In this document: one piece after another, positions 5,194-39,077 of the stretch
Layout of the letters: each line of letters begins with the position of its first letter
Position numbering within the stretch: position 1 is the stretch's first letter
From: Actinomycetes bacterium
GTDB lineage: Bacteria > Actinomycetota > Acidimicrobiia > Acidimicrobiales > RAAP-2
Direction: 5' to 3'
Assembly (NCBI GenBank): GCA_021844425.1
Contig: JAKBTL010000042.1
Coordinates: 2,133 to 66,132 of the forward strand
Length of the DNA stretch: 64,000 bases
Translations under genes and position numbers: made by a program
Notes under the pieces: model-generated
The model's database searches: none
The model's input: only the letters and a program-made list of their open reading frames with translations
Told to the model about the DNA's origin: nothing

Positions 5194-5202
5194 GCTGCCG
5201 GC

Positions 5203-13751: not shown

Positions 13752-13775
13752 CGGCTGGCAGGATAGGGTTCCTCC

Positions 13776-23690: not shown

Positions 23691-24773
23691 ATGAGCTCGA
23701 CGAGTGGCGCGCTCCGCCGGACGCCCCTCTACGACGTGCACCGGTCGCTCGGGGCGAAGCTCGTCGAGTTCGGCGGGTGGGAGATGCCGCTCGCGTACCC
23801 CTCGGGGACCTTGGCCGAGCACCGCGCCTGCCGGAGGGCCGCCGTCGCCTTCGACGTGAGCCACCTCGGAACCGTCCGCGTGGACGGACCGGGCGCGTTC
23901 GAGGTGCTGCAGGGGACGCTCACGAACGACCTCATGAAGATCGCGCCCGGTCGCGCGCAGTACACCCACCTCCTCGAGGAGGACGCTTCCGTGGCCGACG
24001 ACATCATCGTGTGGTGGGTCGCCGAGCAGGTCTTCGACGTGATGCCCAACGCGTCGAACACCTCACGGGTGGTCGCTGCGCTCGGAGGCACCGACACCAC
24101 TGCGCAGCGTGCGGTCGTGGCCGTCCAGGGCCCAAAGGCGCGCGAGCGCCTCGCCGACGTCGTACCCGAGGCGGCGGCGGTCCCCAGGTTCTGCGTGGCG
24201 CATTTCGAGTGGAAGGGGGCTCCGTGCACCGCGGCGGGGACGGGGTACACGGGTGAGGACGGCGTCGAGTGCGCGGTCCCTGCGCACGTCGCCCCGGGGT
24301 TCTTCGCCGCGGTGCTCGACGCAGGGGTCGTCCCTGCCGGGCTCGGCGCACGCGACACCCTTCGGCTCGAAGCCGGCCTCCCGCTCCACGGGCACGAGCT
24401 CGGGCCCGGCATCACGCCGCTGCAAGCTGGCCTCGGCTGGGTCGTCGGCTGGGACAAGGGCGAGTTCAGGGGCCGTGCGGCGCTCGAGCGAGAGCGCGCC
24501 GCCGGGCCGCGCCGGACGCTCCGCGGCCTCGTCGCCGAGGGCCGCCAGCCGCTACGCGACGGGGCGGAGGTCACGTCACGTGGCGAGAGGGTCGGCACCG
24601 TGACGAGCGGCAACTTCTCGCCGATGCTCGAGCGCGGGATCGCGCTCGCCTTCGTCGACACGGTGGCGGGGATCCCCGACGGTGCGCACCTCGTCGCGGT
24701 GGTCCGTGGCCGGGAGGTGCCTGTCACCGTCGGGAGGACCCGCTTCTGGCCGCCTCTGGGAGGGGCGCGCTGA
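23691..24773 (+). CDS. gcvT: Glycine cleavage system aminomethyltransferase T
   Basis: 360 aa. TPLYD.H..LGAK...FGGWEMP..Y and FDVSHLG motifs. Confidence 0.92.
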   Translation: MSSTSGALRRTPLYDVHRSLGAKLVEFGGWEMPLAYPSGTLAEHRACRRAAVAFDVSHLGTVRVDGPGAFEVLQGTLTNDLMKIAPGRAQYTHLLEEDASVADDIIVWWVAEQVFDVMPNASNTSRVVAALGGTDTTAQRAVVAVQGPKARERLADVVPEAAAVPRFCVAHFEWKGAPCTAAGTGYTGEDGVECAVPAHVAPGFFAAVLDAGVVPAGLGARDTLRLEAGLPLHGHELGPGITPLQAGLGWVVGWDKGEFRGRAALERERAAGPRRTLRGLVAEGRQPLRDGAEVTSRGERVGTVTSGNFSPMLERGIALAFVDTVAGIPDGAHLVAVVRGREVPVTVGRTRFWPPLGGAR

Positions 24774-26158: not shown

Positions 26159-27801
26159 CGACCGAGGTCCCGCCGGACGGGACGGCAGGCGGCCACGACC
26201 TGCCTGGTGGCCGGGAGCCCGGGGGCCGGGCCCCCGGGGGCCGCGCGTGGAGCGCCCCGCTCATGGGCCGTGCCGAGGAGCCGACGCTCTTCGAGCTCTC
26301 AGAGCCGGGTCGGCACAGCTGGCAGCTCCGCACGACGGGCGTTCCGGAGTGGAGCGCCGAAGAGCTCCTCCCCGCCGCGCACCGCCGGCACGAGCCTGTG
26401 CCGCTCGCCGAGGTGTCCGAACGGGACCTCGTCGCACATTTCACGCGCCTTTCGCACCGGCAGTTCTCGGTCGACCTCGGCGCCTACCCGCTCGGGTCGT
26501 GCACGATGAAGTACAACCCGAAGGTCTGCGACACGGTGGCCTCGTTGCCGGGGCTGGCCGGGGTGCACCCCGCCGCCCCCGCACAGATGAGCCAGGGGTG
26601 GCTCGCACTGCTCGTCGAGCTCGAGGAGGCGCTGTGCGCGGTCACCGGCATGGCCGCCGCGACCTTCCAGCCTGCTGCCGGCGCGGCGGGCGAGCTGACG
26701 GGGCTGCTTCTCATGCGGGCGTACCACGAGGCGAGGGACGACAGGCGCCGGCGCGTGATCATCCCGGACTCGGCCCACGGCACGAACCCGGCCTCGGTCA
26801 GGATCGGTGGCTACGAGGTGACCACGGTGCCGTCGGACGACCGGGGTTGCGTCGACCTGGCCGCGCTGCGCTCGGTGCTCGACCGCGACGTCGCGGGGAT
26901 CATGCTCACGAACCCGAACACGCTGGGGCTCTTCGAGGAGGGCATCGAGGAGATCGCAGCCGCCGTCCACGACGTGGGCGGTCTCCTCTACTACGACGGC
27001 GCGAACCTGAACGCGATCCTCGGCGTCGTGCGCCCTGGGGACATGGGGTTCGACATCGTCCACCTGAACCTGCACAAGACCTTCGCCACGCCGCACGGCG
27101 GCGGCGGCCCCGGCGCAGGGCCTGTCGCGGTCGGCGAGCACCTGGTGGACTTCCTCCCCGGACCTCGCCCGGTCCGGCTCCTCCACGAAGCACAGGAGAG
27201 CGCGGCGTCGAACGGCACGGGTGCCGCCGCGTACGGCTGGGCGATGCCGCCGCGCTCGATCGGGCGAGTCCACTCCTGGCACGGCAACGCGCTCGTGCTC
27301 GCCCGCGCGCTCACCTACATCCGCGTCCACGGCGGCGACGGGCTGCGCCGGGTCGCCGAGCGTGCGGTGTTGAACGCGAACTGGCTGCGCGCCCGGCTCT
27401 CGTCCGCCTACGACGTGCCGTTCGACCGGCCGTGCATGCACGAGGCGGTGCTCGCTGCCTCCACGCTGAAGCGCCGCTACGGCGTACGTGCGCTCGACGT
27501 GGCCAAGCGGCTGCTCGAAGAAGGGTTCCACGCGCCGACCGTCTACTTCCCTCTGGTGGTGGACGAGGCGCTCATGGTGGAGCCGACCGAGACCGAGAGC
27601 CTCCAGACGCTCGAAGCTCTCGCCGACGCGTTCGAGCGGATCGCCACCGACGCGGCTGAGCCGGCGGGCGCCGAGGCCGCGCACGCCGCACCCCGCACGA
27701 CGCCGGTCGGTCGTCTCGACGAGGCGCGTGCAGCCCGGGTGCTCGTACCGACCTTCGACGCACGCGCGGACGTCGGGAAGCAAGGAGCGTCAGGGCCCTA
27801 G
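26155..27801 (+). CDS. gcvPB: Glycine dehydrogenase (decarboxylating) subunit 2
   Basis: GSCTMKYNPK, SAHGTNPAS, and the PLP-lysine context NLHKTF. The start overlaps the gcvPA stop; internal Met MGRAEEP is an alternative. Confidence 0.9.
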   Translation: MTTEVPPDGTAGGHDLPGGREPGGRAPGGRAWSAPLMGRAEEPTLFELSEPGRHSWQLRTTGVPEWSAEELLPAAHRRHEPVPLAEVSERDLVAHFTRLSHRQFSVDLGAYPLGSCTMKYNPKVCDTVASLPGLAGVHPAAPAQMSQGWLALLVELEEALCAVTGMAAATFQPAAGAAGELTGLLLMRAYHEARDDRRRRVIIPDSAHGTNPASVRIGGYEVTTVPSDDRGCVDLAALRSVLDRDVAGIMLTNPNTLGLFEEGIEEIAAAVHDVGGLLYYDGANLNAILGVVRPGDMGFDIVHLNLHKTFATPHGGGGPGAGPVAVGEHLVDFLPGPRPVRLLHEAQESAASNGTGAAAYGWAMPPRSIGRVHSWHGNALVLARALTYIRVHGGDGLRRVAERAVLNANWLRARLSSAYDVPFDRPCMHEAVLAASTLKRRYGVRALDVAKRLLEEGFHAPTVYFPLVVDEALMVEPTETESLQTLEALADAFERIATDAAEPAGAEAAHAAPRTTPVGRLDEARAARVLVPTFDARADVGKQGASGP

Positions 27802-27802
27802 G

Positions 27803-27928
27803 GACTGCTCCACGTGCGGGTTGTGCGCCCTCGCCTGCCCTCCGACAGCGATTGCGTACGACCCGGGTGCTCAGGTGCTCGAGGTGCCGCTTGGCCGGCG
27901 CCCCGGCGCTGCGCAGGTTCGCTGCTGA
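27803..27928 (+). pseudogene. Orphan 4Fe-4S ferredoxin motif without a usable start codon (putative gene remnant)
   Basis: The frame +1 relative to gcvPB reads DCSTCGLCALACPPTAIAYDPGAQVLEV, a complete CxxCxxCxxxCP motif, then stops at 27926-27928. There is no ATG/GTG between the gcvPB stop and the motif, and no second Cys motif. Confidence 0.35.
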
Positions 27929-28064
27929 GCAGTTGCGGTTGTGTGTGCGGCGCGTGATGGCCGCTTCGATCGGGCAGACCGAGCGGCGACCCGAAGTGGG
28001 TGCTGCGACATGCGACCGGAGGTGGGCGGACCGTGGTGCGCCCGGAAGGGAATGGAGGTTCGCG

Positions 28065-28199
28065 ATGCTGGCGGAGATCTTCGGCTTGGACGGCGTGCTG
28101 GTGCTCGTCACCGTCCCGGGGGTGCTCTTCGCGGCACCGGCCATCCCGAAGCTGGCGCGGAACCTCGGGTCGGCGAGGAGCGAGCTCGCAAGGGCCTGA
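28065..28199 (+). CDS. TatA/E-like mini-protein (44 aa), possibly truncated by a frameshift
   Basis: GGAGG lies 7 nt upstream of ATG 28065. The product MLAEIFGLDGVLVLVTVPGVLFAAPAIPKLARNLGSARSELARA has a TM helix plus a (P)KLARNLG hinge/amphipathic start like TatA. See findings for the -1 frame continuation. Confidence 0.45.
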   Translation: MLAEIFGLDGVLVLVTVPGVLFAAPAIPKLARNLGSARSELARA

Positions 28200-28218
28200 A
28201 GGAGTCCGCCGCGGCCAC

Positions 28219-28290
28219 GGATGTGGCCAAGGATGTGGCCAAGGATGTGGCCAAGGATGTGGCCAAGGATGTGGCCAAGGATGTGGCCAA
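28219..28290. repeat. 12-bp perfect tandem repeat x6 (ggatgtggccaa)
   Basis: Read directly. Encodes (DVAK)6 in the frame that continues the TatA-like ORF after a -1 shift. Confidence 0.95.
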
Positions 28291-28370
28291 GGCTGCCGGC
28301 TGGAGCTCCACGCGCACGTCGACTGCAGGTTGGATGGTTCTCGACCTGGACCTCCGGCGTGACGGGAGGT

Positions 28371-28466
28371 GACCGGGCGCACCGGGCGCACCTGGAGCAC
28401 CGGGCGCACCTGGAGCACCGGGCGCACCTGGAGCACCGGGCGCACCTGGAGCACCGGGCGCACCGG
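28371..28466. repeat. 18-bp tandem repeat, about 4.5 copies plus flanking partials (caccgggcgcacctggag)
   Basis: Read directly. Intergenic, about 150 nt upstream of the hydrogenase-like operon. Confidence 0.95.
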
Positions 28467-28559
28467 GCCATCTGGCGCACTAGGACGGTGAGCCCATGCG
28501 ATAACGTGTGACCCGCCAGATGAGTCCCTGGTGGGCCGACGTGCCCGAACTGCTCGCAC

Positions 28560-28586
28560 GGGATGCGGCATCCCGCGCGCGCTAAT
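28560..28586 (+). promoter_or_regulatory. Palindrome gggatgc-g-gcatccc followed by a gctaat (-10-like) hexamer upstream of the operon
   Basis: 15-nt perfect palindrome at 28560-28574. GCTAAT at 28581-28586. GGAGG at 28606-28610, 5 nt before GTG 28616. Confidence 0.25.
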
Positions 28587-28615
28587 GGCCTCTACGCGAT
28601 TGCGTGGAGGCACAT

Positions 28616-29584
28616 GTGACCCCAGGGTTTGCCGTCGTCGCGCCGAAGGCCGTCCAGGCGCTTCAGGTGCTGACGATCGTCGTCGGCGCCCCGCTCGTGA
28701 GCGGGGTGATCTCGCATGTCGAAGCGCGCCTGCAGGGACGGCGTGGCCCTCGGATCCTCCAGCCCTACTACGACCTCGCGAAGCTCTTCCGCAAGGAGAC
28801 GCTCGTCACCGACGAGTCGAGCTGGGTCTTCCTGGCGGCGCCGGTCGTCGCGTTCAGCTGCTACCTGATCGTGCCGCTGCTCATCCCGGTCCTCACGACG
28901 TACCCCCTGCCGCTCGGCTACATGGGCGACATCCTCGGCGGGGGCTTCGTGCTCGCGCTCGGCGGGTTCTCGGTCGCGCTCGCGGCTGCAGAGTCCGGGG
29001 CTCCGTACGCGCAGCTGGGCGCCAGCAGAGCGATGACGTTCGGCGCGCTGGTGGAACCGACGATCCTCTTCGTCGTCTTCGTGGTGGGCCTGATCACCAG
29101 CACCGATCTTCCCTACGCGCTCGCCGGAACCGTCCGCTCGTCGTCGGAGATCGTGCGGCCGGGCCATGTCCTCGCAGCCGTTGCATTCTTCCTCGTGGTG
29201 CTCGTGGACACCGGGCGGATCCCCGTGGAGACCCATACCGGGACCCTTGAGCTCGGCATGATCGACGAGGCGCGCACCCTCGAGCACTCTGGGCCCGCCC
29301 TCGCCCTCTTGCAGTGGGGATCGGCGATGAAGCAGCTGGTCCTCTACACGATCCTCATCAACGTGTTCGTCGCTCCCTTCGGCCTCTCCTCGAACGGCGC
29401 GCCAGGGTCGGTGGTCGGAGCGATCGGCGCGCTCCTCGGCAAGGCCGTGCTCCTCGGGCTCGTCTTCGCGGTGATCGACAACCTGTTCGCCAAGCTGCGG
29501 CTGTACAAGATCCCCGAGTTCCTGGCGGCGGCCTTCGGCATCGCGGTGCTCGCCGTCGTCGTCTTCTACGTGGGTCCTGCGTGA
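28616..29584 (+). CDS. HycD/HyfC (NuoH-like) membrane subunit of a group-4-hydrogenase-related complex
   Basis: The N-terminus QALQVLTIVVGAPLVSGVISHVEARLQGRRGPRILQPYYDLAKLF is collinear with the recalled E. coli HycD N-terminus. GTG 28616 is preceded by GGAGG; GTG 28604 is an alternative. Confidence 0.85.
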   Translation: MTPGFAVVAPKAVQALQVLTIVVGAPLVSGVISHVEARLQGRRGPRILQPYYDLAKLFRKETLVTDESSWVFLAAPVVAFSCYLIVPLLIPVLTTYPLPLGYMGDILGGGFVLALGGFSVALAAAESGAPYAQLGASRAMTFGALVEPTILFVVFVVGLITSTDLPYALAGTVRSSSEIVRPGHVLAAVAFFLVVLVDTGRIPVETHTGTLELGMIDEARTLEHSGPALALLQWGSAMKQLVLYTILINVFVAPFGLSSNGAPGSVVGAIGALLGKAVLLGLVFAVIDNLFAKLRLYKIPEFLAAAFGIAVLAVVVFYVGPA

Positions 29585-30252
29585 TGCCCGTCCACGTCCC
29601 CTCCACCACCGCAGGCGTCGAGGACGTCGTCGCGGTGCTCGTCTTGCTCACCGAGTTCGCGATGCTGCGGGGTCCGCTCCTGCGCTCCCAGGTGCGCCTG
29701 TACGCGTTCCAGTCGCTCGCGGTGAGCGTGCTCGCCGTCGTCGTCGCCGCGACGAGGCACCTGGCGGACATCTACGCGCTCGCCGGGCTCTCCTTCGTCT
29801 TGAAGGTGGTGATCGTCCCCGCAGTCATGACGCGGCTGCTCCGAGACGTCGACGTCGACCTCGCCGGCAGCTCGAAGCTGGGCGTGGCCAGCTCCATGCT
29901 GGTGGCGCTGGCGGTGTCGGTCTTCGGCTTCTTCGCCGTCGGGTCTCTCCACGTCCACTCCTCGCTCCTGCCGTCGACGACGCTGGCGGTCGCGTCCGCG
30001 GTCGTGCTGGTCGCCTTCGTGCTGATCGTGCTGCGCTCCGACGTGGTCTCCCAGGCGATGGGGTTCTTCTCGCTCGAGAACGGCGTGTCGATCGCGGGCC
30101 TGGTGATCGCCGCGGGGCTGCCGCTCGTCGTCGAGACGACGTTCCTCTTCGACCTGCTCGTCGCGGTGGTGGCCTTCGGGATCATCATCCGCGTCCATCA
30201 CGGCCGATCGAGGACCCTGTCCACCGACGAGCTCGACAGGCTGCGCGGGTAG
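29584..30252 (+). CDS. HyfE/HycP-like small membrane subunit
   Basis: 222 aa, polytopic. ATG 29584 overlaps the upstream stop (TGATG). Size and position match HyfE/mycobacterial HycP. Confidence 0.75.
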   Translation: MPVHVPSTTAGVEDVVAVLVLLTEFAMLRGPLLRSQVRLYAFQSLAVSVLAVVVAATRHLADIYALAGLSFVLKVVIVPAVMTRLLRDVDVDLAGSSKLGVASSMLVALAVSVFGFFAVGSLHVHSSLLPSTTLAVASAVVLVAFVLIVLRSDVVSQAMGFFSLENGVSIAGLVIAAGLPLVVETTFLFDLLVAVVAFGIIIRVHHGRSRTLSTDELDRLRG

Positions 30253-30260
30253 GAGGAGAG

Positions 30261-31811
30261 ATGGCTGCCTTGCTCGTCGTGCTGCTCGCCTTCCCGTTCG
30301 CCGTGGGCGTGGTTTCCTACCTGGTGCCGGTGCGGGTCTCCAAGGTCCTCGCGCCCGTGTCAGGGGCAGTCGCGTTCGCCCTCTCGATTGCCCTCGTGCC
30401 GGCGGTCCTCACCCACGGCCACATCACCGCAGGAAGCGAGCTGCGGGTCGACTCGCTGTCCGTGGTGTTCTTGATCGCCACCTCGTTCCTCTACCTCGCG
30501 ACCGCGATCTTCTCGGCGGGGTACCTGCATCTCGACAGCGGCCCGGCAGGCGCCCGCTACGGCCGGCGCTTCTACGCCGGCCTGAACGTCTTCTGCTGGG
30601 CGATGCTCGCCGCGCCGCTCGTGAGCGGTCTCGCGCTGCTGTGGGTCGCGATCGAGGTCACGACGGTGGTCTCCGCGCTGCTCGTCGCGATCGACGACAC
30701 CGAGACGGCGACCGAGGCTGCGTGGAAGTACGTGCTGATCGCCTCGATGGGGCTCGGCATCAGCCTGCTCGCGACGATCGTGCTCTACTACGCGGGGACC
30801 TCCGTCTTCGGGGCGGGCTACGACCTCTCGTACGCGAAGATGCTCGCAGCGGGGCACCACCTTCCCCCTGAGGTGCTGCGGCTCGCGTTCGTGCTCGCAG
30901 TGCTCGGCTACGGGACGAAGATGGGCCTCGTACCGGTGCACACGTGGCTTCCCGACGCGCACTCCGAAGCCCCGACCCCGGTGTCCGCGCTGCTCTCGGG
31001 GGCGCTGCTTGCGACCAGCTTCTACGCGATCCTCCGGTACTACCAGATCACGGCCGCGGCGATCGGCTCCGTCTTCCCTCGCAACGTCCTGCTGGTCTTC
31101 GGCCTCGCCTCCCTTCTTCTCGCGGCGCTCTACCTGCTGCGTCAGCGCGACATCAAGCGGATGCTCGCCTACTCGAGCATCGAGCACATGGGCGTCCTCG
31201 CCATCGGGGTGAGCTTCGGGGTGACGCTCGCGTTCATCGGCGTCCTCCTCCACGTCCTCGCGCACGCCGCCGCGAAAGGCACCGCCTTCTTCGGGGCGGG
31301 CTCGGTCGTGCGCAAGTTCGGGACGAAGGACATGGCGCTCGTGCGTGGAGGGGTGGGCGCGCTGCCATGGAGCGGCTCGATGCTCGTTGCCGCGGTGCTC
31401 GCCCTCTCCGCCATGCCGCCGTTCGGCCTGTTCAGGAGCGAGTTCCTCATCGTCTCAGGTGGGCTCTCCGATCCGCGCTACGCGGTCGCGGCGGTGCTCG
31501 TGGTCCTCGTGACGCTCGCCTTCGTGGGCCTCGGGTGGTCGACCACGCAGACCATGCTCACGACGGGGCCCGCGGACGCCGCGCTCGCCGCGGCGCCGCA
31601 CGCGACCCCGCACACCCCGCACGCCCCGCACGCCCCGCACGCCCCGCACGCCGCTGTCGTGTCATCTCGCGTGCGAAAAGGCGAGGTGAGCCCGTGGATC
31701 GTCCTCGCGATGGCGCTCGGCATCGCGGCGTTGGTGCTTCTCGGTGTCCACCTGCCTGCCGACCTCAGCAGGCTGCTCGACCATGCGGCGCACGAGCTGA
31801 GGACACCGTGA
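30261..31811 (+). CDS. HyfF/HycQ-like antiporter-type (NuoM/N, MrpD family) subunit
   Basis: AGGAGGAGAG directly upstream. Canonical motifs VHTWLPDAHSEAPTPVSALLSG, AYSSIEHMG, HVLAHAAAKG. PHA repeat near the C-terminus. Confidence 0.88.
   Translation: MAALLVVLLAFPFAVGVVSYLVPVRVSKVLAPVSGAVAFALSIALVPAVLTHGHITAGSELRVDSLSVVFLIATSFLYLATAIFSAGYLHLDSGPAGARYGRRFYAGLNVFCWAMLAAPLVSGLALLWVAIEVTTVVSALLVAIDDTETATEAAWKYVLIASMGLGISLLATIVLYYAGTSVFGAGYDLSYAKMLAAGHHLPPEVLRLAFVLAVLGYGTKMGLVPVHTWLPDAHSEAPTPVSALLSGALLATSFYAILRYYQITAAAIGSVFPRNVLLVFGLASLLLAALYLLRQRDIKRMLAYSSIEHMGVLAIGVSFGVTLAFIGVLLHVLAHAAAKGTAFFGAGSVVRKFGTKDMALVRGGVGALPWSGSMLVAAVLALSAMPPFGLFRSEFLIVSGGLSDPRYAVAAVLVVLVTLAFVGLGWSTTQTMLTTGPADAALAAAPHATPHTPHAPHAPHAPHAAVVSSRVRKGEVSPWIVLAMALGIAALVLLGVHLPADLSRLLDHAAHELRTP
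31596..31652. repeat. 9-bp tandem repeat, about 5-6 copies (ccccgcacg; PHAPHAPHAPHA)
   Basis: Read directly. In-frame in the HyfF-like gene. Confidence 0.85.
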
Positions 31812-33388
31812 ACGACGCCATGAAGACGTTGTGGTCATCGGCGCACGCGCAGCCAGCAGACGCCGAGGATGCGGGGGATGTCGCGGTCTTCCCTTCCACG
31901 CGCCAGCGCGTCGCCGCCGGCGCGCGCTTCTGCGGGCTCTTCGAGGGCTTCCGAGGCGCGGGCTCCCCAGGCGAGGGATCCCCAGGCGAGGGCTTCCGAG
32001 GTGCCGCCGGCGCGGCGCTGCTCGCGGTGGTGTCGTCGGAGGGAACGCTGTTCGTCGAAGAGGCGCGTCTCGACGCGGGGCGGAGGCCCAGGTACGAGTC
32101 GCTCACCCCGGCGACCCCGGCCGCAGGCTGGTACGAGCGGCGCCTGCGCGACCTGTTCGGCATCGAGCCGCTCGGCCACCCGCGGCTCGACCCGCTCTCC
32201 TTCCCCGTGCCCGCAGGCAGCGCCGCGCCGCGGGGGATCGGAGGCGACCCGATGGTCCCGATGACCCCCGACCCGAGCCCCCTGCCGGCGCACGTCCACG
32301 GCGAGGGCGTGTTCACCCTTCCCTACGGCCCGGTCCGCTCGGGCGTGTTCGAGGCCGTCGAGTACCTGGTGGAGACGTCGGGCGAGGACATCTCGCACCT
32401 CCGGACGCGCATCTTCTACAAGCACCGGGGGATCGAGGCGCGCTTCTGCGGCCTGGGCGTCGCGGACGGCGTGCTGCTCGCCGAGCGCGTCGAGGGCGTG
32501 GCGTCCGTCGCGCACGCCGTCGCCTTCAGCCAGGCGATCGAGCAGATCGGCGACGTCGCGGTCCCGCTCGAGGCGCAGCTCGTCCGCGTCGTGCACGCCG
32601 AGCTCGAGCGTGTCGCGAACCACCTGGACACCATGGTCCGCCACACCGAGGCGGCGGGACAGGCGGTGGCCTACGCCGTGCTCTCGCACCACAAGGAGCG
32701 GGTCCAGCGGCTCCGGGCACGGCTTTCCGGCAGCCGCTTCGGAAGGGGGGTGGTCGTGCCGGGCGGTGTCATCAGGCCGCTGCGGCTCCGCCCGTCAGAG
32801 GTGCTGGCGACCCTGACCTCGCTCGAGCGGGAGATCGACGAGGACGTCCGCCGGCTGATGGACACCCCGTCCTTCGTGGACAGGCTGCGGGGGACCGGAG
32901 TGCTCGCGCATAGCGACGCGCGCCGGTTCGCGGTCGTCGGCCCGGTCGGGAGGGCCTCGGGGCAGTCGGAGGACGTCCGCACCAGCCGTCCCTACGGCGC
33001 CTACCAGCGTCTCGGGCAGCGGATCTTCGAACCCCACGAAGAGGGCGACGCCTTGGCGCGCCAACGCGTCCGCATCGCCGAGATCGCCGGCGCGTTCCAC
33101 CTGGTGCGCCAGGCGGTCGACCTGCTCGACGAGCTCGGGGAGCCGCAGCGCTGGCGTGCCGGTGTCCCTGCGGTGACCGGCCGGTCGATCGGGTGGGCGG
33201 AGGCGCCGCAAGGCGAGCTGCTCTACGTCGTCGAGGCGGCCGAGGGGCGCCTCGTGCAGGTGAGCCAGCGCTCCGCGTCGTTCCACAACCTCGCCGCGTA
33301 CCCGGCGGCCTTCCCGAAGGACATCTTCACCGACGTGGCCTTCATCGAGGCCAGCTTCGGGCTCTCGATCGCAGGGGCGGCCGGCTGA
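31808..33388 (+). CDS. HycE-like NuoC-NuoD fusion ('large subunit') lacking NiFe cysteine ligands
   Basis: GTG 31808 overlaps the upstream stop; ATG 31820 is an alternative. NuoC-like WYERRLRDLFGIEPLGHP. NuoD/HycE-like LPYGPVRSG...RIFYKHRGIE...ERVEGVASVAH. C-terminus FIEASFGLSIAGAAG. Confidence 0.85.
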   Translation: MNDAMKTLWSSAHAQPADAEDAGDVAVFPSTRQRVAAGARFCGLFEGFRGAGSPGEGSPGEGFRGAAGAALLAVVSSEGTLFVEEARLDAGRRPRYESLTPATPAAGWYERRLRDLFGIEPLGHPRLDPLSFPVPAGSAAPRGIGGDPMVPMTPDPSPLPAHVHGEGVFTLPYGPVRSGVFEAVEYLVETSGEDISHLRTRIFYKHRGIEARFCGLGVADGVLLAERVEGVASVAHAVAFSQAIEQIGDVAVPLEAQLVRVVHAELERVANHLDTMVRHTEAAGQAVAYAVLSHHKERVQRLRARLSGSRFGRGVVVPGGVIRPLRLRPSEVLATLTSLEREIDEDVRRLMDTPSFVDRLRGTGVLAHSDARRFAVVGPVGRASGQSEDVRTSRPYGAYQRLGQRIFEPHEEGDALARQRVRIAEIAGAFHLVRQAVDLLDELGEPQRWRAGVPAVTGRSIGWAEAPQGELLYVVEAAEGRLVQVSQRSASFHNLAAYPAAFPKDIFTDVAFIEASFGLSIAGAAG

Positions 33389-34239
33389 TGCCCTGGATCC
33401 CCCGCGGCCTGCGTCACGGCATCGTGACGAGCGGCTACCCGAAGCGTCCCGACGGGTACGGTCCCGGCTTCTTCGGGCACGTCGAGGTCGCGCCCGCCCG
33501 CGGCGACGGTCCCGAGGCGCTCGCCCGCGGCGACGGTCCCGAAGCGCTCGCCGCGGCGGTGGACGAGTGCCCCACCGGCGCGATCACGTTCGACGGCGAC
33601 GTGGTGCGGCTGGACCGCGGGCGGTGCATCCTGTGCGGCCGCTGCGTGGCGCTCGCCCCGTCGACGTTCCGTGCCGACCCGGGCTTCGAGACGGCTGGCC
33701 ACGGCCGGCGCGCGCTCGTGGTGCCGGCGGCCGAGGACGACGACGCGGCGCTGGCGGAGACCCGGGCGCGGCTCGCCCGGCGGGTCCGCGGGCTGCGCCG
33801 CTCCGTCCACGTCCGTCATGTCGACGCCGGATCGGACGGCGCAGAGGAGTGGGAGGTGGCGGCGCTGACCAATCCCGTCTACGACGTCCAGCGCCTCGGG
33901 GTCTTCTTCACCGCGAGCCCCAAGCACGCGGACGTGCTGCTCGTCACCGGCATCGGCACGGCGGGCATGGAGTCCCCGCTCCGCCAGACCTACGACCTGA
34001 TGCCCGAGCCCAAGGTGGTGGTCGCCGCCGGGGTCGACGCCGCGAGCGGCGGCATGGTGCATGCGGGCTACGCCGCGCGCGGCGGGGTTGCCGGGTTCAT
34101 CCCCGTGGACGTGTACGTCCCGGGCTCCCCGCCGAGTCCCTTCGGCATCCTCCACGGCATCTTGGAGGCTGTGGGGATCCTCGGCTCGCGCCGGCACATC
34201 GGCGCGGAGGGCCCGAAGGATGAGGCGGGCGCCCGATGA
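33388..34239 (+). CDS. Ferredoxin-like domain fused to a NuoB/HycG-like 'small subunit' lacking cluster cysteines
   Basis: ATG 33388 overlaps the upstream stop. N-terminal ECPTGAI...CILCGRCVALAP. The C-terminal part is collinear with HycG (PVYDVQRLGVFFTASPKHADVLLVTG, PEPKVVVAAG, PVDVYVPGSPPSP). Confidence 0.85.
   Translation: MPWIPRGLRHGIVTSGYPKRPDGYGPGFFGHVEVAPARGDGPEALARGDGPEALAAAVDECPTGAITFDGDVVRLDRGRCILCGRCVALAPSTFRADPGFETAGHGRRALVVPAAEDDDAALAETRARLARRVRGLRRSVHVRHVDAGSDGAEEWEVAALTNPVYDVQRLGVFFTASPKHADVLLVTGIGTAGMESPLRQTYDLMPEPKVVVAAGVDAASGGMVHAGYAARGGVAGFIPVDVYVPGSPPSPFGILHGILEAVGILGSRRHIGAEGPKDEAGAR
33497..33550. repeat. 27-bp tandem repeat x2 (ARGDGPEAL x2)
   Basis: Read directly. In-frame, with one substitution. 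Confidence 0.9.
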
Positions 34240-36392
34240 CCGCCGCGCTCATCGTGGCCGCGCTCGCCTGTCTGCTCGCCGGCGCTGCGGTCGACCTGGG
34301 TCTCGGGACGCGCTGGGCCATGGTGCGCGCGCTGCCATACCTGCTCGGCGCTGTAGGCAGCGCCTGTCTGCTCGCGGTCGGGATCCACGCGACGCTCTCT
34401 CGCACGCCGACCACCATCGGCATCGCGCCGCTCTTCGACGTGGCGCGCGGCGCGTTGCGAGTGGACCCGCTCGCCGGGCTCTTCCTGACGCTCATGTTCG
34501 GGATCGGCCTGGCGGTGTCCTTGTGCTTCGCCTCGTGGGCGTGGTCGGACGCCGGAAGGGCGCACCGCCGAGCGGTCGCGACCGGCTACCTCACGCTCCT
34601 CGCCTCGGTGGCGGTGGTGGTGTGCGCGGCCGACGCGTTCGTCTTCCTCTTCGCCTGGGAGGCGCTGACGGTCTCCTTCTACCTGCTGACGTCGGCGCAG
34701 CGGGGGAGCGAGCGCCAGGCGCGCGCCCCGTGGATCACGGCGGGCATCGGGAAGCTGAGCGGAGCGAGCCTGCTGTTCGGCTTCCTGCTCCTGGCGGGCC
34801 GCACCCACAGCTTGGCGATCGCGAGCTGGTCGCACGTCGGCCCCGGCGGGCTGCACGACGTCGCGTGGGTGCTCCTCCTGGTCGGCTTCGCCGCCAAGCT
34901 CGGCGTGGTGCCGTTGCAGGTCTGGATCCCGGTCGGCTACCCGGCCGCGCCGGGGCCGTCCCGTGCCGCGATGGCGGGGATCGCCGCCAACGTCGGCGTC
35001 TACGGCCTCTGGCGCTTCCTCGGCGTCCTCGGACGACCACCGGTGTGGCTGGTGATCGTCGTCTTGCTTGCCGGAGGGGTCACCGCGTTCCTCGGCATCC
35101 TCTTCGCGGGCGTGCAGTCGCGCCTCAGCCGCGTGGTGGCGTACTCGAGCGTCGAGCAGGCCGGGATCATCCTCGTCGCCTACGGCGTGGCGCTCACCGG
35201 GGTCACCGTCGGCTCGACGACTCTGGAGGTGGTCGGCCTCCTCGCCGCTTCGCTCCAGGTGGTGGCCCACGCCGTCGCGAAGTCCACGGTGTTCTGCTCG
35301 CTCGCGTTCGCCGAAGCCGAAGCGGGGACCGACGACCTCGACGCGCTGCGCGGCGCGGGTCGCCGCCTGCCGTGGAGCGGCGCGGCGTTCGGGGCTGGCG
35401 CCCTGGCGCTCGCGGGGCTCCCGCCGACGATCGGCTTCGTCTCGGAGTGGTTCGTGCTCGAGGCGCTCATGCAGCAGTTCCGTCTGGGGGGGCTCGCGTT
35501 GCGTCTCGGCCTCGCAGGGGCCGGGGCGCTCGTCGCGCTGACCACCGGGCTCGCCGCCCTCGCGTTCGTCCGCGTCCTCGGCCTCACGTTCCTGGGCCGC
35601 CGGATTGACTCGACTGCCTCGGTGTCGGTGTCGGTGTCGCCGTCGTCGGTGTCGCCGTCGTCGGTGTCGCCGGTGTCCGCGTCGGCTGCGCCGGCGTCGA
35701 GTGCGGCGACGCGAGCCGGGGACGCCGGCGTGCTCGGACGGGTCGGTCTCGTCGCGCTGACGCTCGGGTGCCTAGGGATCGCTGCGGCGAGCCCCTGGGA
35801 GGTCCGGTTCCTCGGGCACGGGCTCGCGCCGCTCGTGCCGCGAGCCGGCGTGCTGGGGGCGCTCAAGTCCCCATGGGTGCTCCAGCCCGTCTACCAGGGG
35901 TTCTCCATCCTCTCGCCGTCGTGGCTGTGGGTCGTCCTGCCGTTCGCGTGCGTGGGCGCCTTCGCGATGGCGATGCTCTTGTCGAGGGGGCGCTACGTGC
36001 GGGTCCGCCGGGTGCCGGCGTGGCGCTCCGCCACCGCGGGGGTGGCCGGCCGGTCGTCGTACACGGCGTTCGGTTTCGCGAACCCGCTGCGCCACGTGCT
36101 TGCCAACGTGCTCGCGACGGAGCGGATCCGTCGTGTCCGACCGGTGGTCGCAGGGATGTCCGTCGCGGGCGAGGCGGAGAGCCGTCTGCAAGAGGGAACG
36201 AGCGTCCACGTCGAGTCGGAGACGAGAGTCGTCGAGCCGGTCGAGGCGTACCTCTACCGGCCGGCGTGGAGGCTGGCCGTCGCGGTGGCCGACGCAGCAC
36301 GCCGGCTGCAGTCGGGGTCGCTCAACGCCTACGTTGCCTACATGCTGGTCGCGCTCCTCATCGCGCTCGCGGTCACGGCGGCACTGCGATGA
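34236..36392 (+). CDS. HycC/HyfB-like (NuoL-type) antiporter-like subunit
   Basis: 718 aa. ATG 34236 overlaps the upstream stop (ATGA). AYSSVEQAG, HAVAKS. The C-terminal SYTAFGFANPLRHV region is typical of HycC/HyfB. Confidence 0.85.
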   Translation: MTAALIVAALACLLAGAAVDLGLGTRWAMVRALPYLLGAVGSACLLAVGIHATLSRTPTTIGIAPLFDVARGALRVDPLAGLFLTLMFGIGLAVSLCFASWAWSDAGRAHRRAVATGYLTLLASVAVVVCAADAFVFLFAWEALTVSFYLLTSAQRGSERQARAPWITAGIGKLSGASLLFGFLLLAGRTHSLAIASWSHVGPGGLHDVAWVLLLVGFAAKLGVVPLQVWIPVGYPAAPGPSRAAMAGIAANVGVYGLWRFLGVLGRPPVWLVIVVLLAGGVTAFLGILFAGVQSRLSRVVAYSSVEQAGIILVAYGVALTGVTVGSTTLEVVGLLAASLQVVAHAVAKSTVFCSLAFAEAEAGTDDLDALRGAGRRLPWSGAAFGAGALALAGLPPTIGFVSEWFVLEALMQQFRLGGLALRLGLAGAGALVALTTGLAALAFVRVLGLTFLGRRIDSTASVSVSVSPSSVSPSSVSPVSASAAPASSAATRAGDAGVLGRVGLVALTLGCLGIAAASPWEVRFLGHGLAPLVPRAGVLGALKSPWVLQPVYQGFSILSPSWLWVVLPFACVGAFAMAMLLSRGRYVRVRRVPAWRSATAGVAGRSSYTAFGFANPLRHVLANVLATERIRRVRPVVAGMSVAGEAESRLQEGTSVHVESETRVVEPVEAYLYRPAWRLAVAVADAARRLQSGSLNAYVAYMLVALLIALAVTAALR
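35621..35680. repeat. 6/15-bp tandem repeats (SVSVSVSPSSVSPSSVSPVS)
   Basis: Read directly. In-frame in a loop of the HyfB-like subunit. Confidence 0.85.
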
Positions 36393-36838
36393 GCGCGGCC
36401 GGAGGAGGGCCGCCGCGCGCTCGTGCCTTCCGGCGCATCCTCGTGGGCTACGACGGGTCGAGGGAGGCGCAGGATGCGCTGCGAACCGCGGTCGCGCTGG
36501 CTGAGGAGGTCGACGGCGACGTGCGCGTGCTTCTCGTGGTCCGCCCGCCCGCGCACGTCGAGACGCCCGAGGAGCTCGCGAGTGCCGCGTCGGCCGAACG
36601 CGACAACCTGTCGCAGGGCCTCGAAGCCCTTCTCCGCCCGGGACTCGGGCGAGTGCCCGAGACGCGCGTAGTCTTCGCCGACGACCCCGCCCGCGCGATC
36701 GCGGAGCACGCGGAGGTCCACGGCTTCGACCTCGTCGTCGTGGGGTGCCACGGGCGGGAGCGGGCGACCCACCGCGGCATCGGCCAGGCGCTCGAGTCGC
36801 TGTTGCGGCACCATCCCTGCCCGGTGCTGGTGGTCTGA
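36389..36838 (+). CDS. Universal stress protein (UspA family)
   Basis: ATG 36389 overlaps the HyfB-like stop (ATGA). RILVGYDGSREAQDAL ... DLVVVGCHGR ... GIGQALESLLRHHPCPVLVV. Confidence 0.8.
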   Translation: MSAAGGGPPRARAFRRILVGYDGSREAQDALRTAVALAEEVDGDVRVLLVVRPPAHVETPEELASAASAERDNLSQGLEALLRPGLGRVPETRVVFADDPARAIAEHAEVHGFDLVVVGCHGRERATHRGIGQALESLLRHHPCPVLVV

Positions 36839-36844
36839 GCGCTC

Positions 36845-36907
36845 TCGTCGGGGCTCGTCGGGGGTCCCCGGGGCTCGTCGGGGCTCCGCGGGGCTCGTCG
36901 GGGGTCC
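36845..36907. repeat. Degenerate approximately 12-bp repeats (ggggctcgtcgg) in the convergent intergenic spacer
   Basis: Read directly. A 7-bp-stem hairpin ggggtcc/ggacccc at 36901-36924 encloses the dynamin-like stop codon. Confidence 0.7.
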
Positions 36908-38815
36908 TCAGCTGCGGGGACCCCGGCCCTGGGGTGCGCCCAGCTCGGTGCTCGAGAGCTGCTCGGCCTGGCGTGCGAGGCACATGGTTCGGGCGCGCTC
37001 GGCTTCTCTCGCCGCCTGCTCGGACTCGGTCGACTCGAGTGCGTGCTGCGCACTCGACGCCGCCGCGATGATGGAGGCCTCGGTCTCCTCGAGCTCTGCG
37101 GTCATCGCGGCGACGAACCGCCGTGACACCGTGTCGAGACGCTGCACGACGTCGAATCGGGCGCGTCCCGCGTGCTTGTCGAGCTCCGAGACGAGCCGTC
37201 GGTGCGCCCGGTCGAGCATCGCACGGCGGGACCGCTCCGTCGGAAGGACCGTCCGAACGGCGCGTGCGAGCGAGGAGCCGGGGCTCTCCACCTGCAAGAA
37301 CAGGTACGAGAAGCGCTCGCGTTGCTCGGCGACCGTCGGGAGGACCGCTTCGGGGAGGTGCACTTCGAAGAGGGCGCTCGCCGCCGTGCGCAGCGACTGG
37401 ACCTGCTGGCGCAGCTTGCCCGCGAACGCTTCCGCGGACCGCGCCCAGCCCTCGTCCGCCGTCTCCTCGACCGCATGGCGCAACGGGTCGAAGGCGTCGG
37501 TGACCGCGCGGTCCACAGCGTCGTCGAGCGCGCGGTCGAGGGCGCGGCCGCGAAGACCTGCCACGGACTCCTCGACGCTGGGCCAGGCACGTCGAGCCAC
37601 CTCGGCCGCGCCTGCGGCGAGCGCGGCGCCCACCGCCTCTGCGATCTGTGCGACGTCGTGGTCGAGCACGAGCCGGCTGGCTGCGAGCTCGCGCCGCACG
37701 TCGTCCGCAGCCGCGCGGAACCGCTCGAGCCGCTCTTTCAGCGCGGCGAGGTCGAAGGTGGCTGCCGCCCGCTCGATGGCGACGGTCTCCGAGAGGGCCG
37801 CGGCCAGCCGGCCGAGCTCCGCGGCGCCTGCCCGCTCTCGCTCGGCGGCGAGGTCGTCGCGCAGGAACGCCTCCAGGTCGCCCCTGAACGCGTCGAAGCC
37901 CGGGTCGCCTGGCGCGCCCGTCCCGCCCGCCTCGCCTGGCGCGCCCGTCCCGCCCGCCTCGCCTGGCGCGCCCGTCCCGCCCGCCTCGCCTGGCGCGCCC
38001 GTCCCGCCCGCCTCGCCTGGCGCGCCCGGAGCGTCGGTCCCGCCCGCCGGGAACAGCGCGTCGAGGGCTCGGCGCGCCGAGAGGAAGTAGACCTCAGCGT
38101 GCTCGCCGAGCAGCCGTGCGAGGTGGCCGCTCAAGTAGCTGCGAACCTCTGCGAGCTCGTGCGCGACGAGGTGGTCGCACTTGTTGACCGCGACGAACAC
38201 CCGTCCGCCGCGGTCGGCGAGATCGGCGAGAAGGCTCTCTTCCTGCTCGGAGAGTGGGGCGTCGACGGACAGGACCACGACCGCTCCGTCGCTGTCGGAG
38301 AGCGCCTCTTTAGCTGCAAGGGTGTGCTGCTCGCTCACCGACGCGACGCCGGGGGTGTCGACGAGCACCACGCCCTGGGCCCCGAGGGGCGTGTCGACGT
38401 GCACCTCGACGCGCCTGACGCCCAGCCGGTTGGCGGGGTTGTCCCGCTCGCTCACGTAGCGCGCGAGCTCGCTCAGAGGAAGCTCGCGGCTCGTGGCGTC
38501 GTCGAAGACCACGCGCAGTCCCGGGTGCGGGTGCGCGAAGTGGACCTCGGTTGCGACGGAGGTGACGGGGACGACGCCCGTGGGGAGGACCGGCGCGCCG
38601 ATCAGGGCGTTCACGAGCGTGGACTTGCCGCGTTTGAACTCGCCGAGCACCGCGATGTGGTAGCGCTGGGCCTCGGAGCGCTCCGCGAGCCGCAGTGCTC
38701 GCTCGGCGAACGCGGCTGGCTGGTCCCCGAGCGCAGCCATCTCACGGGCGAGCGACGCGACCGTCGTGCTCGGTCGTGGGCTGGCTGGCATAGGTTCCTC
38801 CCGCCGGTGCTGCAC
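36908..38815 (-). CDS. Bacterial dynamin-like GTPase
   Basis: G1 GEFKRGKST, G3 LVDTPG, G4 NKCD. Long alpha-helical Ala/Arg/Glu-rich stalk. ATG 38791 is an alternative start. Confidence 0.8.
   Translation of the reverse strand: MQHRREEPMPASPRPSTTVASLAREMAALGDQPAAFAERALRLAERSEAQRYHIAVLGEFKRGKSTLVNALIGAPVLPTGVVPVTSVATEVHFAHPHPGLRVVFDDATSRELPLSELARYVSERDNPANRLGVRRVEVHVDTPLGAQGVVLVDTPGVASVSEQHTLAAKEALSDSDGAVVVLSVDAPLSEQEESLLADLADRGGRVFVAVNKCDHLVAHELAEVRSYLSGHLARLLGEHAEVYFLSARRALDALFPAGGTDAPGAPGEAGGTGAPGEAGGTGAPGEAGGTGAPGEAGGTGAPGDPGFDAFRGDLEAFLRDDLAAERERAGAAELGRLAAALSETVAIERAAATFDLAALKERLERFRAAADDVRRELAASRLVLDHDVAQIAEAVGAALAAGAAEVARRAWPSVEESVAGLRGRALDRALDDAVDRAVTDAFDPLRHAVEETADEGWARSAEAFAGKLRQQVQSLRTAASALFEVHLPEAVLPTVAEQRERFSYLFLQVESPGSSLARAVRTVLPTERSRRAMLDRAHRRLVSELDKHAGRARFDVVQRLDTVSRRFVAAMTAELEETEASIIAAASSAQHALESTESEQAAREAERARTMCLARQAEQLSSTELGAPQGRGPRS
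37905..38027. repeat. 27-bp perfect tandem repeat, about 4.6 copies (GAPGEAGGT units) inside the dynamin-like gene
   Basis: tcgcctggcgcgcccgtcccgcccgcc repeated from 37905. In-frame. Confidence 0.95.
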
Positions 38816-38851
38816 CTCGACAGGAGCTATCAGCCGTGATGGCGGTCGGTG

Positions 38852-38982
38852 GCGAGCTCCATCGCCGACGTCAGTCTACGTCTTCGGCACCGCGCACCGG
38901 CGATGCAGGCAGGCTCCACAGGCCCGGCCCCGTGCGACGCGCGACTCGGTAGGATCATGCAAGGAACGGCGATGGAGCTCGC
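38852..38982. promoter_or_regulatory. Perfect 15-bp inverted repeat pair (gcgagctccatcgcc / ggcgatggagctcgc) in the divergent promoter region
   Basis: Arms at 38852-38866 and 38968-38982, 101 nt apart, between the dynamin-like and MutS-like genes. Confidence 0.5.
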
Positions 38983-39077
38983 TGCACCGCCCTCGGGCCG
39001 CACCGGCCTCGGGCTGATGGCTCCTACTGACCGCTGGCGGCCTTCGGCCGCGATGCCGGCGAGAAGGGGAGTGGTGC

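Follow-up and report, generated by a model that had tools for sequence, protein, structure and literature searches.

What could a complex with the full build of a formate hydrogenlyase do once nearly all of the residues that would bind its redox metals have been replaced? The question is raised by seven genes at 28616-36838 on the plus strand of a 64,000-nt stretch of Actinomycetes bacterium DNA (order Acidimicrobiales, from soil; contig JAKBTL010000042.1 of assembly GCA_021844425.1; G+C ~71%), which is called the window below and to which all coordinates refer. The seven genes are predicted to form one operon encoding a complex of the energy-converting-hydrogenase-related (Ehr) class, descended from hydrogenase-4/formate hydrogenlyase (FHL), that appears to have lost its N2-type cluster as well as its NiFe site and to be expressed from behind a fluoride-riboswitch-type leader within a fluoride-response gene island. 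We put the probability of this account of the identity and the regulatory context of the complex at about 0.85.

All seven reading frames are intact and tightly coupled, and inspection of the junctions found them as the original prediction had described them, with one-base TGA/ATG overlaps at 29584 and 33388, GTGA/ATGA overlaps at 31808, 34236 and 36389, and an 8-nt gap containing GGAGGAGAG between the stop of the second gene and ATG 30261. The gene content was also as described, matches to Pfam, NCBIfam and the E. coli FHL structure (7Z0S) giving an FHL/group-4 module set. The first gene (g1, 28616..29584, start codon GTG) encodes a NuoH/HycD-like membrane subunit (PF00146, 4e-33; best Protein Data Bank (PDB) match 7z0s_D, 2.5e-36). 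It is followed by g2 (29584..30252), a HyfE-like small membrane subunit that matches NF008556 (hydrogenase-4 membrane subunit) over its full length at 86.5 bits, under the cut-off of 136, and for which a PDB sequence search returned no solved-structure match, and by g3 (30261..31811), a HyfF-like antiporter-type subunit of the NuoM/N class (PF00361, 7.5e-47; HyfF models up to 352 bits). The 'large subunit' is encoded by g4 (31808..33388), a HycE-like NuoC-NuoD fusion (PF00329 and PF00346; 7z0s_E, 5.7e-39), and the small subunit by g5 (33388..34239), in which a HycF/NuoI-like half-domain is fused to a HycG/NuoB-like domain (ferredoxin-like domain plus PF01058). The last two genes are g6 (34236..36392), a HyfB/HycC-like antiporter-type subunit of the NuoL class with a C-terminal extension (NF005086, 357 bits; 7z0s_C, 1.6e-29), and g7 (36389..36838), a universal stress protein (USP; PF00582, 1.5e-27) that is ATGA-coupled to g6. 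For each structural subunit that had a match, the best solved structure was a chain of E. coli FHL (HycC/D/E/F/G). The membrane arm would comprise the NuoH-, HyfE-, HyfF- and HyfB-like subunits, and the peripheral arm the NuoCD-like subunit and the HycF-HycG fusion. The USP gene, whose coupling in the window had already been noted, lies within 500 nt of g6 on the same strand in 36 of 61 loci; the USP is a real operon member.

In a HMMER alignment, HycE 'RVCGICGFAH' falls on g4 'RVEGVASVAH', and the four NiFe ligand positions are occupied by E229 (Cys1), A232 (Cys2), S516 (Cys3) and L519 (Cys4), which bears out the earlier claim that the large subunit has no CxxC pairs for NiFe. The C-terminus of g4 is 'IEASFGLSIAGAAG' in place of DPCxxCxxH/R, with IEASFGLSIAG standing in this L2 region, and there is no C-terminal extension for maturation cleavage. 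Neither the L1 motif RxCGxCxxxH nor the L2 cysteine pair of a group 4 [NiFe]-hydrogenase is found in g4, and none of the four proximal [4Fe-4S] cysteines is found in g5. The complex I quinone ligands are lost too, Thermus Nqo4 His38 and Tyr87 corresponding to F181 and G230 of g4. Their absence is reportedly part of the Ehr definition given by Marreiros in 2013, and the window complex shares it.

For g5, alignment with HycG, MbhJ and an N2-bearing paralog placed D150, E153, D217 and S247 at the N2/proximal-cluster positions, the CxxC of these three proteins falling on D150 and E153 and their third and fourth ligands on D217 and S247. The original prediction was right about the loss of the N2 cysteines; the residues that it listed, A/D/D/S, have to be corrected to D/E/D/S, because A147 matches an additional cysteine found only in HycG. 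At neither the L1/L2 nor the NuoB cluster positions did the profile alignments place conserved cysteines. The cysteines that remain form the single ferredoxin-type set seen before, C61 (the 'CP' of ferredoxin motif I) and C80xxC83xxC86 (motif II), and are invariant in 77/77 relatives; the N-terminal 100 residues of g5 are most similar to HycF (7.4e-5). Because the standard ligand-swap rule of 2x[4Fe-4S] ferredoxins, applied to C61 and C80/C83/C86, yields one N6b-type cluster, these four cysteines are predicted to bind exactly one [4Fe-4S], the N6b equivalent of complex I, with the N6a equivalent lost. NiFe site, complex-I quinone ligands and N2-type cluster are all absent from the predicted complex, which would be neither a hydrogenase nor a formate hydrogenlyase.

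E. coli FHL/hydrogenase-4 (Hyc/Hyf) has a homologous HycC/D/E/F/G and HyfE/F set with equally tight gene coupling, whereas the window complex lacks the NiFe site and the proximal cluster, keeps one of HycF's two clusters, and is encoded without a HycB/FdhF electron-input module, a C-terminal cleavage extension or nearby HycI/Hyp; no match to Hyp/HycI maturation genes was obtained among the part of the window's open reading frames (ORFs) that was scanned with Pfam. With the Q and P modules of complex I it has in common homologs of NuoB, C, D, H, L and M/N, NuoI in part, and the conserved beta1-beta2 and NuoH loops. It does not have the set that characterises complex I itself (quinone site, N2, NuoA/J/K and N-module), with Phe and Gly at the quinone ligands, N2 and N6a absent and, among its seven genes, no homologs of NuoA, J, E, F or G.

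The residues that replace the ligands are themselves conserved. D150/E153/D217/S247 are kept in 72-77 of 77 relatives, and across the 77 small subunits there is little or no variation in RHVDAGSDGxEEWE, D217, S247 and the four ferredoxin cysteines. In the large subunit ERxEGVASVAH, YGPVRSGVFE and IEASFGLSIAG are invariant (120 homologs for the first and last of these). Because the same substitutions are fixed in ~80 species-level loci, the metal-site pattern lies far beyond chance. The best Foldseek matches of g5, complex I PSST/NuoB and HycG, confirmed its NuoB/HycG fold, and at the acidic D/E/D/S cluster the place of the lost cubane has probably been taken by a bound cation or by a network of salt bridges. 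The idea that an arginine replaces the bound cation in some N2-less relatives (DERS, DEAR, DETR; P0142, P0146, P0165, P0194) was dropped because its representatives were frameshifted metagenome ORFs.

Database homologs numbered 2993 for the large and 3418 for the small subunit; a scan of species representatives (one genome per species) gave 312 contigs, and statements about the family rest on the best 80 of these 312. All of the best 80 are Acidimicrobiales/Acidimicrobiaceae/Actinomycetota metagenome-assembled genomes (MAGs) from soil, peat and sediment, relatives of at least 90% identity being Acidimicrobiales MAGs, and the g1-g6 order was the same in all of the 80 with enough flank. Pairwise comparison with four relatives gave dN/dS values of 0.07-0.29 across all seven genes, against 0.13-0.18 for the neighbouring gcvPB as the comparison gene, the NuoH-like (g1, 0.07-0.10) and HyfE-like subunits being the most constrained. 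All of the genes are under purifying selection, not decay, and the alternative that they are decaying pseudogenes, which the original prediction had named as one that would refute it, is contradicted by these ratios together with the intact frames and conserved order. Neither a conserved redox partner (formate dehydrogenase, carbon monoxide dehydrogenase (CODH), pyruvate:ferredoxin oxidoreductase (PFOR)) nor hyp genes were found in the flanks of the ~80 loci.

In a rough neighbour-joining tree, made without bootstrap support from representatives clustered at 50% identity, small subunits form two groups, one N2-bearing (CCCC) and the other, to which the window belongs, a large N2-less clade (D-E/D/V-D-S). 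The N2-bearing forms include thaumarchaeal and actinobacterial proteins, and many of them share the fused one-cluster ferredoxin domain. A few other losses of N2 (DTDN, DSSD, NEGD, DAAD, ECED) appear independent. At two loci, L040 and L068, a paralogous N2-bearing Ehr cluster adjoins the N2-less one in the same gene order; its large subunit is cysteine-less (ERxEGLSAVAN; IIEASFWLTVAG), whereas N2 is intact in its small subunit (TGSCAACE, GACxLGG, PGCPP). Because N2-bearing Ehr relatives occur in the same lineage and in archaea, the window complex is predicted to be a derived, N2-less member of the known Ehr class, and the earlier description of it as Ehr-like but more extreme, with the N2 equivalent gone, is sustained by this contrast. 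The N2-bearing paralog clusters lie at L068 1-6635 (-), L040 13285-18874 (-), L030 12818-16276 (+) and L051 14240-15203 (+). Their ferredoxin-like and NuoB-like parts are apparently in separate frames, and the paralog has a GAUGAGGCCC-type riboswitch-like element of its own in front of it, scoring below the Rfam gathering threshold.

Ehr complexes have been catalogued since 2005 from Geobacter, Sulfobacillus, nitrifiers, candidate phyla radiation (CPR) bacteria and others, always as 'function unknown'. Those of Geobacter sulfurreducens (GSU0739-45), Sulfobacillus (six-gene clusters), comammox Nitrospira, ammonia-oxidising archaea and CPR have the same subunit set as the window (NuoH-like, HyfE-like, two antiporter-like, large and small), and their large subunits likewise lack RxCGxCxxxH and DPCxxCxxH/R. 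The window operon differs from them in that its small subunit also lacks all four N2/proximal cysteines and is fused to a one-cluster HycF-like half-domain, and in having a USP gene and a fluoride-riboswitch-type leader in addition. A group-4-like cluster whose large subunit lacks NiFe ligands, as is found here, is what defines Ehr (PMC6349859, PMC10284858, PMC4378227); the six-gene composition is the same, and the function is given as unknown, throughout the literature (PMC4378227, PMC7894505, PMC6349859, PMC10284858, PMC10432482), and HydDB deliberately excludes the class (PMC5037454). The Ehr relatives inspected for it (the paralog of L040/L068 and the thaumarchaeal and actinobacterial ones) have an N2-type cluster (CCCC), which the window lacks; neither an N2-less Ehr nor an Acidimicrobiia Ehr was found in the literature searched, although the founding papers may contain a mention.

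A first indication of how the operon is regulated comes from its leader. When the 170 nt upstream of g1 were aligned in all loci, a conserved, pseudoknotted, fluoride-riboswitch-like element emerged, which the original prediction had not mentioned and which in the window lies at 28513-28610, directly upstream of g1. The consensus runs CCGG-AUGAGGCY-CCGG, an inserted hairpin (9-61 nt), CGAACYGCC, a short hairpin, GGCUGAUGGCCUCUACG, a spacer and CGU-GGAGG, and a generic pattern places the element <90 nt before g1 in 63 of 68 loci. In the window the aptamer-like part (28513..28598, plus strand) is made up of a helix CCGCCAG/CUGGUGG around the loop AUGAGUCC, the inserted hairpin (28533-28546), a CGAACUGC junction, an extended P2 hairpin and then GCUAAUGGCCUCUACGCG, whose GGCCUC pairs with GAGUCC in the pseudoknot. 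Downstream, a candidate expression platform, the hairpin GCCUCUACGCG-AUUG-CGUGGAGGC (28588..28611, plus strand), buries the Shine-Dalgarno sequence GGAGG (28606-28610), which ends 5 nt before the g1 start codon. The platform shares its CCUCU strand with the aptamer pseudoknot, and the 3' strand CCUCUACGC can alternatively pair with GCGUGGAGG, masking the Shine-Dalgarno sequence. The predicted layout is that of a translational ON switch.

Covariation across 45 distinct sequences, from which the variable inserts had been removed, supports the aptamer fold. Helix, pseudoknot and P2 were paired in 92.3% of cells, compared with 30-55% for slid partners; seven pairs change on both sides (e.g. CCA/UGG, CCG/CGG, UCG/CGA), covariation is present in all three helices, and 0 of 500 shuffles reached the covariation score. 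The expression-platform hairpin is part of the minimum-free-energy fold (z = -3.6), and its helix is paired in 94% of cells across the 45 loci, with modest covariation. The window element has the helix, pseudoknot and P2 architecture and the conserved GAUGR...CUGAUGR core of the fluoride riboswitch (crcB motif, RF01734), with which it also shares an ON-type platform and the same genomic company (CrcB, enolase, MutS, USP, 'FHL'); it differs in the extra 9-61 nt hairpin between the first helix and the CGAAC junction. Apart from this insertion, it matches the crystallised Thermotoga petrophila fluoride aptamer (GGCGAUGAGGCCCGCCCAAACUGCCCUGAAAAGGGCUGAUGGCCUCUACUG). With RF01734 the window element scored only 9.2 bits, because of the inserted hairpin, and a homolog (L062) 26.4 bits, neither reaching the gathering threshold of 34; a general Rfam scan of the leader at E up to 1 gave noise only, and the element was spotted by eye after two weak covariance-model matches in L031 and L050. 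We regard the leader as a fluoride-riboswitch variant that Rfam-based annotation has missed, probably of a new-looking, insertion-bearing subclass with fluoride as the putative ligand.

Around the element, a putative -10 box TAACGT (28502..28507, plus strand) was seen by eye, a TANNNT lying ~5-15 nt upstream of the RNA element in most loci. In this region a consensus sigma-70 scan gave no promoter; it reported five terminator-like sites, all of them inside coding sequence. At the two loci of the weak matches (L031 6729-6787, L050 6734-6792) the 5' half of the leader is degenerate (GGCGAG--CGCUUGC) and the 3' half well kept; there it may be a decaying or re-purposed riboswitch.

The genes around the operon carry the same signature. 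Canonical fluoride riboswitches lie at 38814..38875 (minus strand; RF01734, 39.4 bits against the gathering score of 34), before a dynamin-like GTPase gene (36908-38815, minus strand; Dynamin_N, 1e-27) that converges on the USP gene at the 3' end of the operon, and at 38959..39033 (plus strand; 38.5 bits), before two genes with MutS-domain-V-like products (39078-40664 and about 40439-42235; MutS_V matches). A covariance model built from ten canonical sites and run over 1.35 Mb of Ehr neighbourhoods from 81 sources gave 43 riboswitch matches in 27 of the 81; the genes right after the matches include those for dynamin-like GTPase (11), MutS-like protein (9), CrcB (6) and histidine-phosphatase (6), and CrcB, DUF190 and enolase are among the gene families found repeatedly in the DNA flanking related loci. 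Riboswitch-like matches also precede the first gene of the N2-bearing Ehr paralog in L068, L051 and, by pattern, L030. The operon lies in a fluoride-response gene island. Because this island and the fluoride-riboswitch-type leader occur together, the stress to which the operon is linked would be fluoride, and probably acid; the statement that no function could be assigned, and the suggestion of dormancy-linked expression, are superseded.

A distant N2-less lineage, L083 (GCA_964616005.1; 38% and 47% identity to g4 and g5), has D-V-D-S at the small-subunit sites and a cysteine-less large subunit. Here a riboswitch that scores 54.9 bits with RF01734, above the threshold, stands directly before DUF190-NuoH-HyfE-HyfF-large-small-HyfB-USP, two further riboswitches stand before DUF190-MFS and a pair of MutS_V genes, and enolase adjoins, an independent confirmation of the predicted fluoride link. 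A JGI contig (P0279) has CrcB-DUF190 only 10 nt beyond the end of an N2-bearing Ehr and on its strand. These results agree with what has been described for other fluoride regulons. In its original description the crcB motif stood ahead of mutS, ion-transport and 'formate hydrogen lyase' genes (PMC2864571); the genes most often associated with fluoride riboswitches include those of FHL and of Na+/H+ antiporters, the latter as the second most common class (PMC11139923); and in Enterobacter cloacae the USP is a proven member of the fluoride-riboswitch operon ppaC-uspA-eno-gpmA-crcB (PMC5533749). It is for these bacterial lineages, and not for Ehr in general, that the association is established.

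Several side observations were made in these neighbourhoods. DUF190 repeatedly accompanies Ehr operons (in L083 at 4958-5419 and 13529-13906, one of them the operon's first gene); it is an uncharacterised CrcB partner, and its tie to Ehr may be informative. In L023 and L037 a canonical riboswitch lies ~800 nt upstream, before a same-strand histidine-phosphatase gene. The two canonical riboswitches in the window are divergent, and the dynamin-like and MutS-like products behind them are both P-loop NTPases; metal-fluoride inhibition of NTPases is one thought on why they belong to a fluoride regulon.

In the membrane arm, the charged residues of an ion path are largely kept. The original prediction of canonical proton-channel motifs in the HyfF-like subunit holds for the TM5 Glu, TM7 Lys, TM11 Lys and TM12 Glu, which are invariant in g3 and g6 (g3 E132 in TM5, K220 in TM7, K339 and, in TM12, E394, with H234 also invariant; g6 E142, K221, K349, E404), and fails for the central TM8 Lys of NuoM, NuoN, MbhH and HycC, which is replaced by Ala251 in g3 (Ala in 63 of 75, Thr in 9) and by Asn252 in g6 (66/66). 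In g1, invariance reaches at least 97% at 131 of 322 residues, among them many acidic ones of the loops and the channel and an acidic run in the TM5-6 loop region, and g2 has invariant K74, D153, E165 and D190. A conserved charged membrane pathway is predicted to exist, though one that departs from the textbook pathway. Mrp-type and other Na+/H+ antiporters likewise combine PF00361 subunits bearing intramembrane Glu/Lys with a fluoride-riboswitch association. Of the MrpA-G set, only the PF00361 subunits are common to both, MrpB, E, F and G being absent from the window complex, which has a NuoH-like subunit and a NuoB/NuoCD-type peripheral arm instead and no TM8 lysine in either antiporter-like subunit; antiport would be assigned to it by analogy.

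From these elements a functional model can be drawn, a fluoride- and acid-stress-induced ion translocator that is independent of through-electron transfer, which we consider possible at somewhat less than even odds. As fluoride rises, the aptamer would capture the CCUCU strand and free the ribosome-binding site, and the complex and its USP would then be made under fluoride stress. Fluoride would enter as HF, acidify the cytoplasm and drain the proton-motive force that fluoride export needs. Cytoplasmic acidification by HF has been described, and a pH-homeostasis role under HF stress has been proposed for the antiporters (PMC11139923). In this model the conserved charged pathway would move H+, possibly against Na+ or K+, and so protect the pH of the cytoplasm and the membrane potential from the acid that HF influx brings in. 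The N6b-N2-quinone path of complex I spans ~25 Å; with the N2 and N6a equivalents gone, the surviving cluster would be too far away to feed the large-subunit pocket. The single [4Fe-4S] could then have a structural or a regulatory part, with a cation or salt bridges occupying the D/E/D/S pocket. Because the remaining cluster would be too far from the large-subunit pocket without N2, the complex is most likely no oxidoreductase; because N2 was lost repeatedly while the rest is constrained, and because both paralogs share their regulation, a redox-independent ion-translocating role is favoured.

A number of findings weigh against this interpretation and against the regulatory account beneath it, chief among them, for the functional model, the missing TM8 lysines and the invariant cluster cysteines. 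E. coli NuoM needs its TM8 lysine for activity; because that lysine is absent from both antiporter-like subunits, ion conduction via the canonical path is not assured, and the specificity and direction of ion movement cannot be read from sequence. The invariance of the retained [4Fe-4S] cysteines would fit redox chemistry that is still essential. The D/E/D/S geometry is drawn from homology alone, because the AlphaFold2 model of g5, made from 66 homologs, is poor (pLDDT 59, and <50 in the former N2 loop). Fluoride binding and switching by the leader RNA are predictions in which both ligand and expression are read from sequence: the window leader fails the Rfam fluoride model, the additional hairpin might change its specificity, a U-C mismatch occurs in the pseudoknot in the clade to which the window belongs, and the matches before the paralog clusters (L030, L051, L068) are under the Rfam gathering score. 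Finally, because no fluoride link was seen in a thaumarchaeal locus (L085) or in a truncated actinobacterial one (L084), the link may not hold for all Ehr.

The main rival is that the complex is still a redox-driven pump, whose [4Fe-4S] receives its electrons from ferredoxin, one candidate source being the 2-oxoacid:ferredoxin oxidoreductase encoded 20 kb upstream, and passes them to an unknown nearby acceptor or via a redox-active metal at D150/E153/D217/S247, exporting protons in fluoride stress. It would account for the 77/77 invariance of the cluster cysteines and for the invariant beta1-beta2 loop of the large subunit (YGPVRSGVFE) and NuoH loop, which look like those of a coupled machine, and Geobacter Ehr subunits rise on formate (PMC7894505). 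The gene invoked as the electron source is indeed present in the window (6337-8235, similar to the 2-oxoacid:ferredoxin oxidoreductase alpha subunit, korA), as originally noted, but its proposed link to the operon is not borne out, and no redox partner is conserved nearby in the ~80 loci. With the N6a and N2 equivalents gone there would be no wire to the large-subunit pocket, a four-cysteine cluster leaves no open coordination site for catalysis, carboxylate and serine sites make poor electron relays, and N2 was lost several times independently in related small subunits while the rest stayed under selection; we consider this rival unlikely. That the complex handles fluoride itself, as an energy-coupled exporter or handler of fluoride or metal-fluoride with peripheral acidic pockets that bind Mg-F, would make sense of its tight link to CrcB and DUF190, which share its operon in some lineages, and of invariant carboxylate clusters at both former metal sites. 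Yet no anion-moving homolog is known in the superfamily, CrcB channels are already present in the same islands and anion selectivity is not indicated by the sequence, which makes this improbable.

The ligand itself may also be questioned. The leader could be a diverged relative of the fluoride riboswitch that senses another ligand or none, the operon then answering acid, metal or hypoxia through its USP context. It differs from the canonical riboswitches that adjoin it in the same genomes by AUGAGGCY where they have AUGGAGCU, by the inserted hairpin and by a translational platform, and the sub-threshold scores and the degenerate L031 and L050 elements would be expected of such a relative. Its core nucleotides (GAUGAG..., GCUGAUGGCCUCUAC), however, match the Thermotoga petrophila aptamer, a canonical riboswitch precedes the same operon in the distant lineage, and the neighbours are classical fluoride-regulon genes, so that a different ligand seems quite unlikely. 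Public annotation ('formate hydrogenlyase subunit 5', 'hydrogenase large subunit', 'Ni,Fe-hydrogenase III small subunit') would have the locus be a decaying FHL/hydrogenase-4 remnant or a working [NiFe] hydrogenase with unconventional ligands. Against this stand intact frames, an order conserved in ~80 species, low dN/dS, invariant replacement residues, the missing maturation-cleavage extension and the absence of hyp genes among the ORFs scanned; either version is very hard to credit.

If the N2-less Ehr complex is indeed a fluoride-responsive ion translocator, the clade would be a natural experiment in which NuoH/antiporter machinery is driven or gated by a non-redox input. A widespread clade that is under purifying selection without the last cluster able to deliver electrons to the catalytic pocket argues that Ehr function may not need through-electron transfer, which bears on complex-I-type coupling. 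The main value of the locus is that it ties Ehr complexes to fluoride stress: fluoride-type riboswitches before both N2-less and N2-bearing paralogs, with CrcB/DUF190 co-operonic elsewhere, offer a regulatory handle on Ehr and a first testable clue. Reviews explain the 'formate hydrogen lyase' genes of fluoride regulons as fermentation enzymes, whereas in these bacteria the predicted products could not make a hydrogenase; at least in part, that class probably consists of such Ehr complexes. The broader proposition, that Ehr accounts for the 'formate hydrogen lyase' genes so far unexplained in the fluoride regulon and represents electron-transfer-free, complex-I-like ion translocators for fluoride and acid stress, with an insertion-bearing riboswitch subclass, is put forward tentatively, as rather unlikely in its full extent.

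The remaining observations concern the surroundings of the operon. A minus-strand ORF of 271 aa at 27798-28613 was rejected as a GC-rich artefact, having no Pfam match and no homolog in related loci. The glycine-cleavage genes gcvT, gcvPA and gcvPB (23691-27801) lie directly upstream of the operon on the same strand; because no relatives but the closest keep them in this position, they probably have no connection with it. A metallo-beta-lactamase/SCP2/Rieske fusion protein is encoded at 152-1768 and a GGDEF-EAL protein at 43184-45028; neither of these genes, nor the korA-like one, is linked to the operon in other genomes. A small TatA-like ORF (MLAEIFGLDGVLVLVTVPGVLFAAPAIPKLARNLGSARSEL...) at 28065-28199 and then 28213-28292 is frameshifted relative to its intact orthologs in L002 and L003 (...SARSEFEKGLKESAA...), either as a real pseudogene or through an assembly error, and its downstream frame enters a tandem array of 6.7 copies of a 12-nt unit (GGCCAAGGATGT), which is translated as DVAK repeats. 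G+C-rich short tandem repeats (period 9-30 nt) are found between genes at 28372-28480 and 36844-36907 and, in frame, in linkers of g3-g6 at 31576-31654, 31942-32001, 33490-33558 and 35619-35707. They are polymorphic in copy number, because the proteins of relatives of at least 90% identity are longer or shorter by an integral number of repeat units (large subunit 516/521/526/531 aa, small subunit 274/283 aa).

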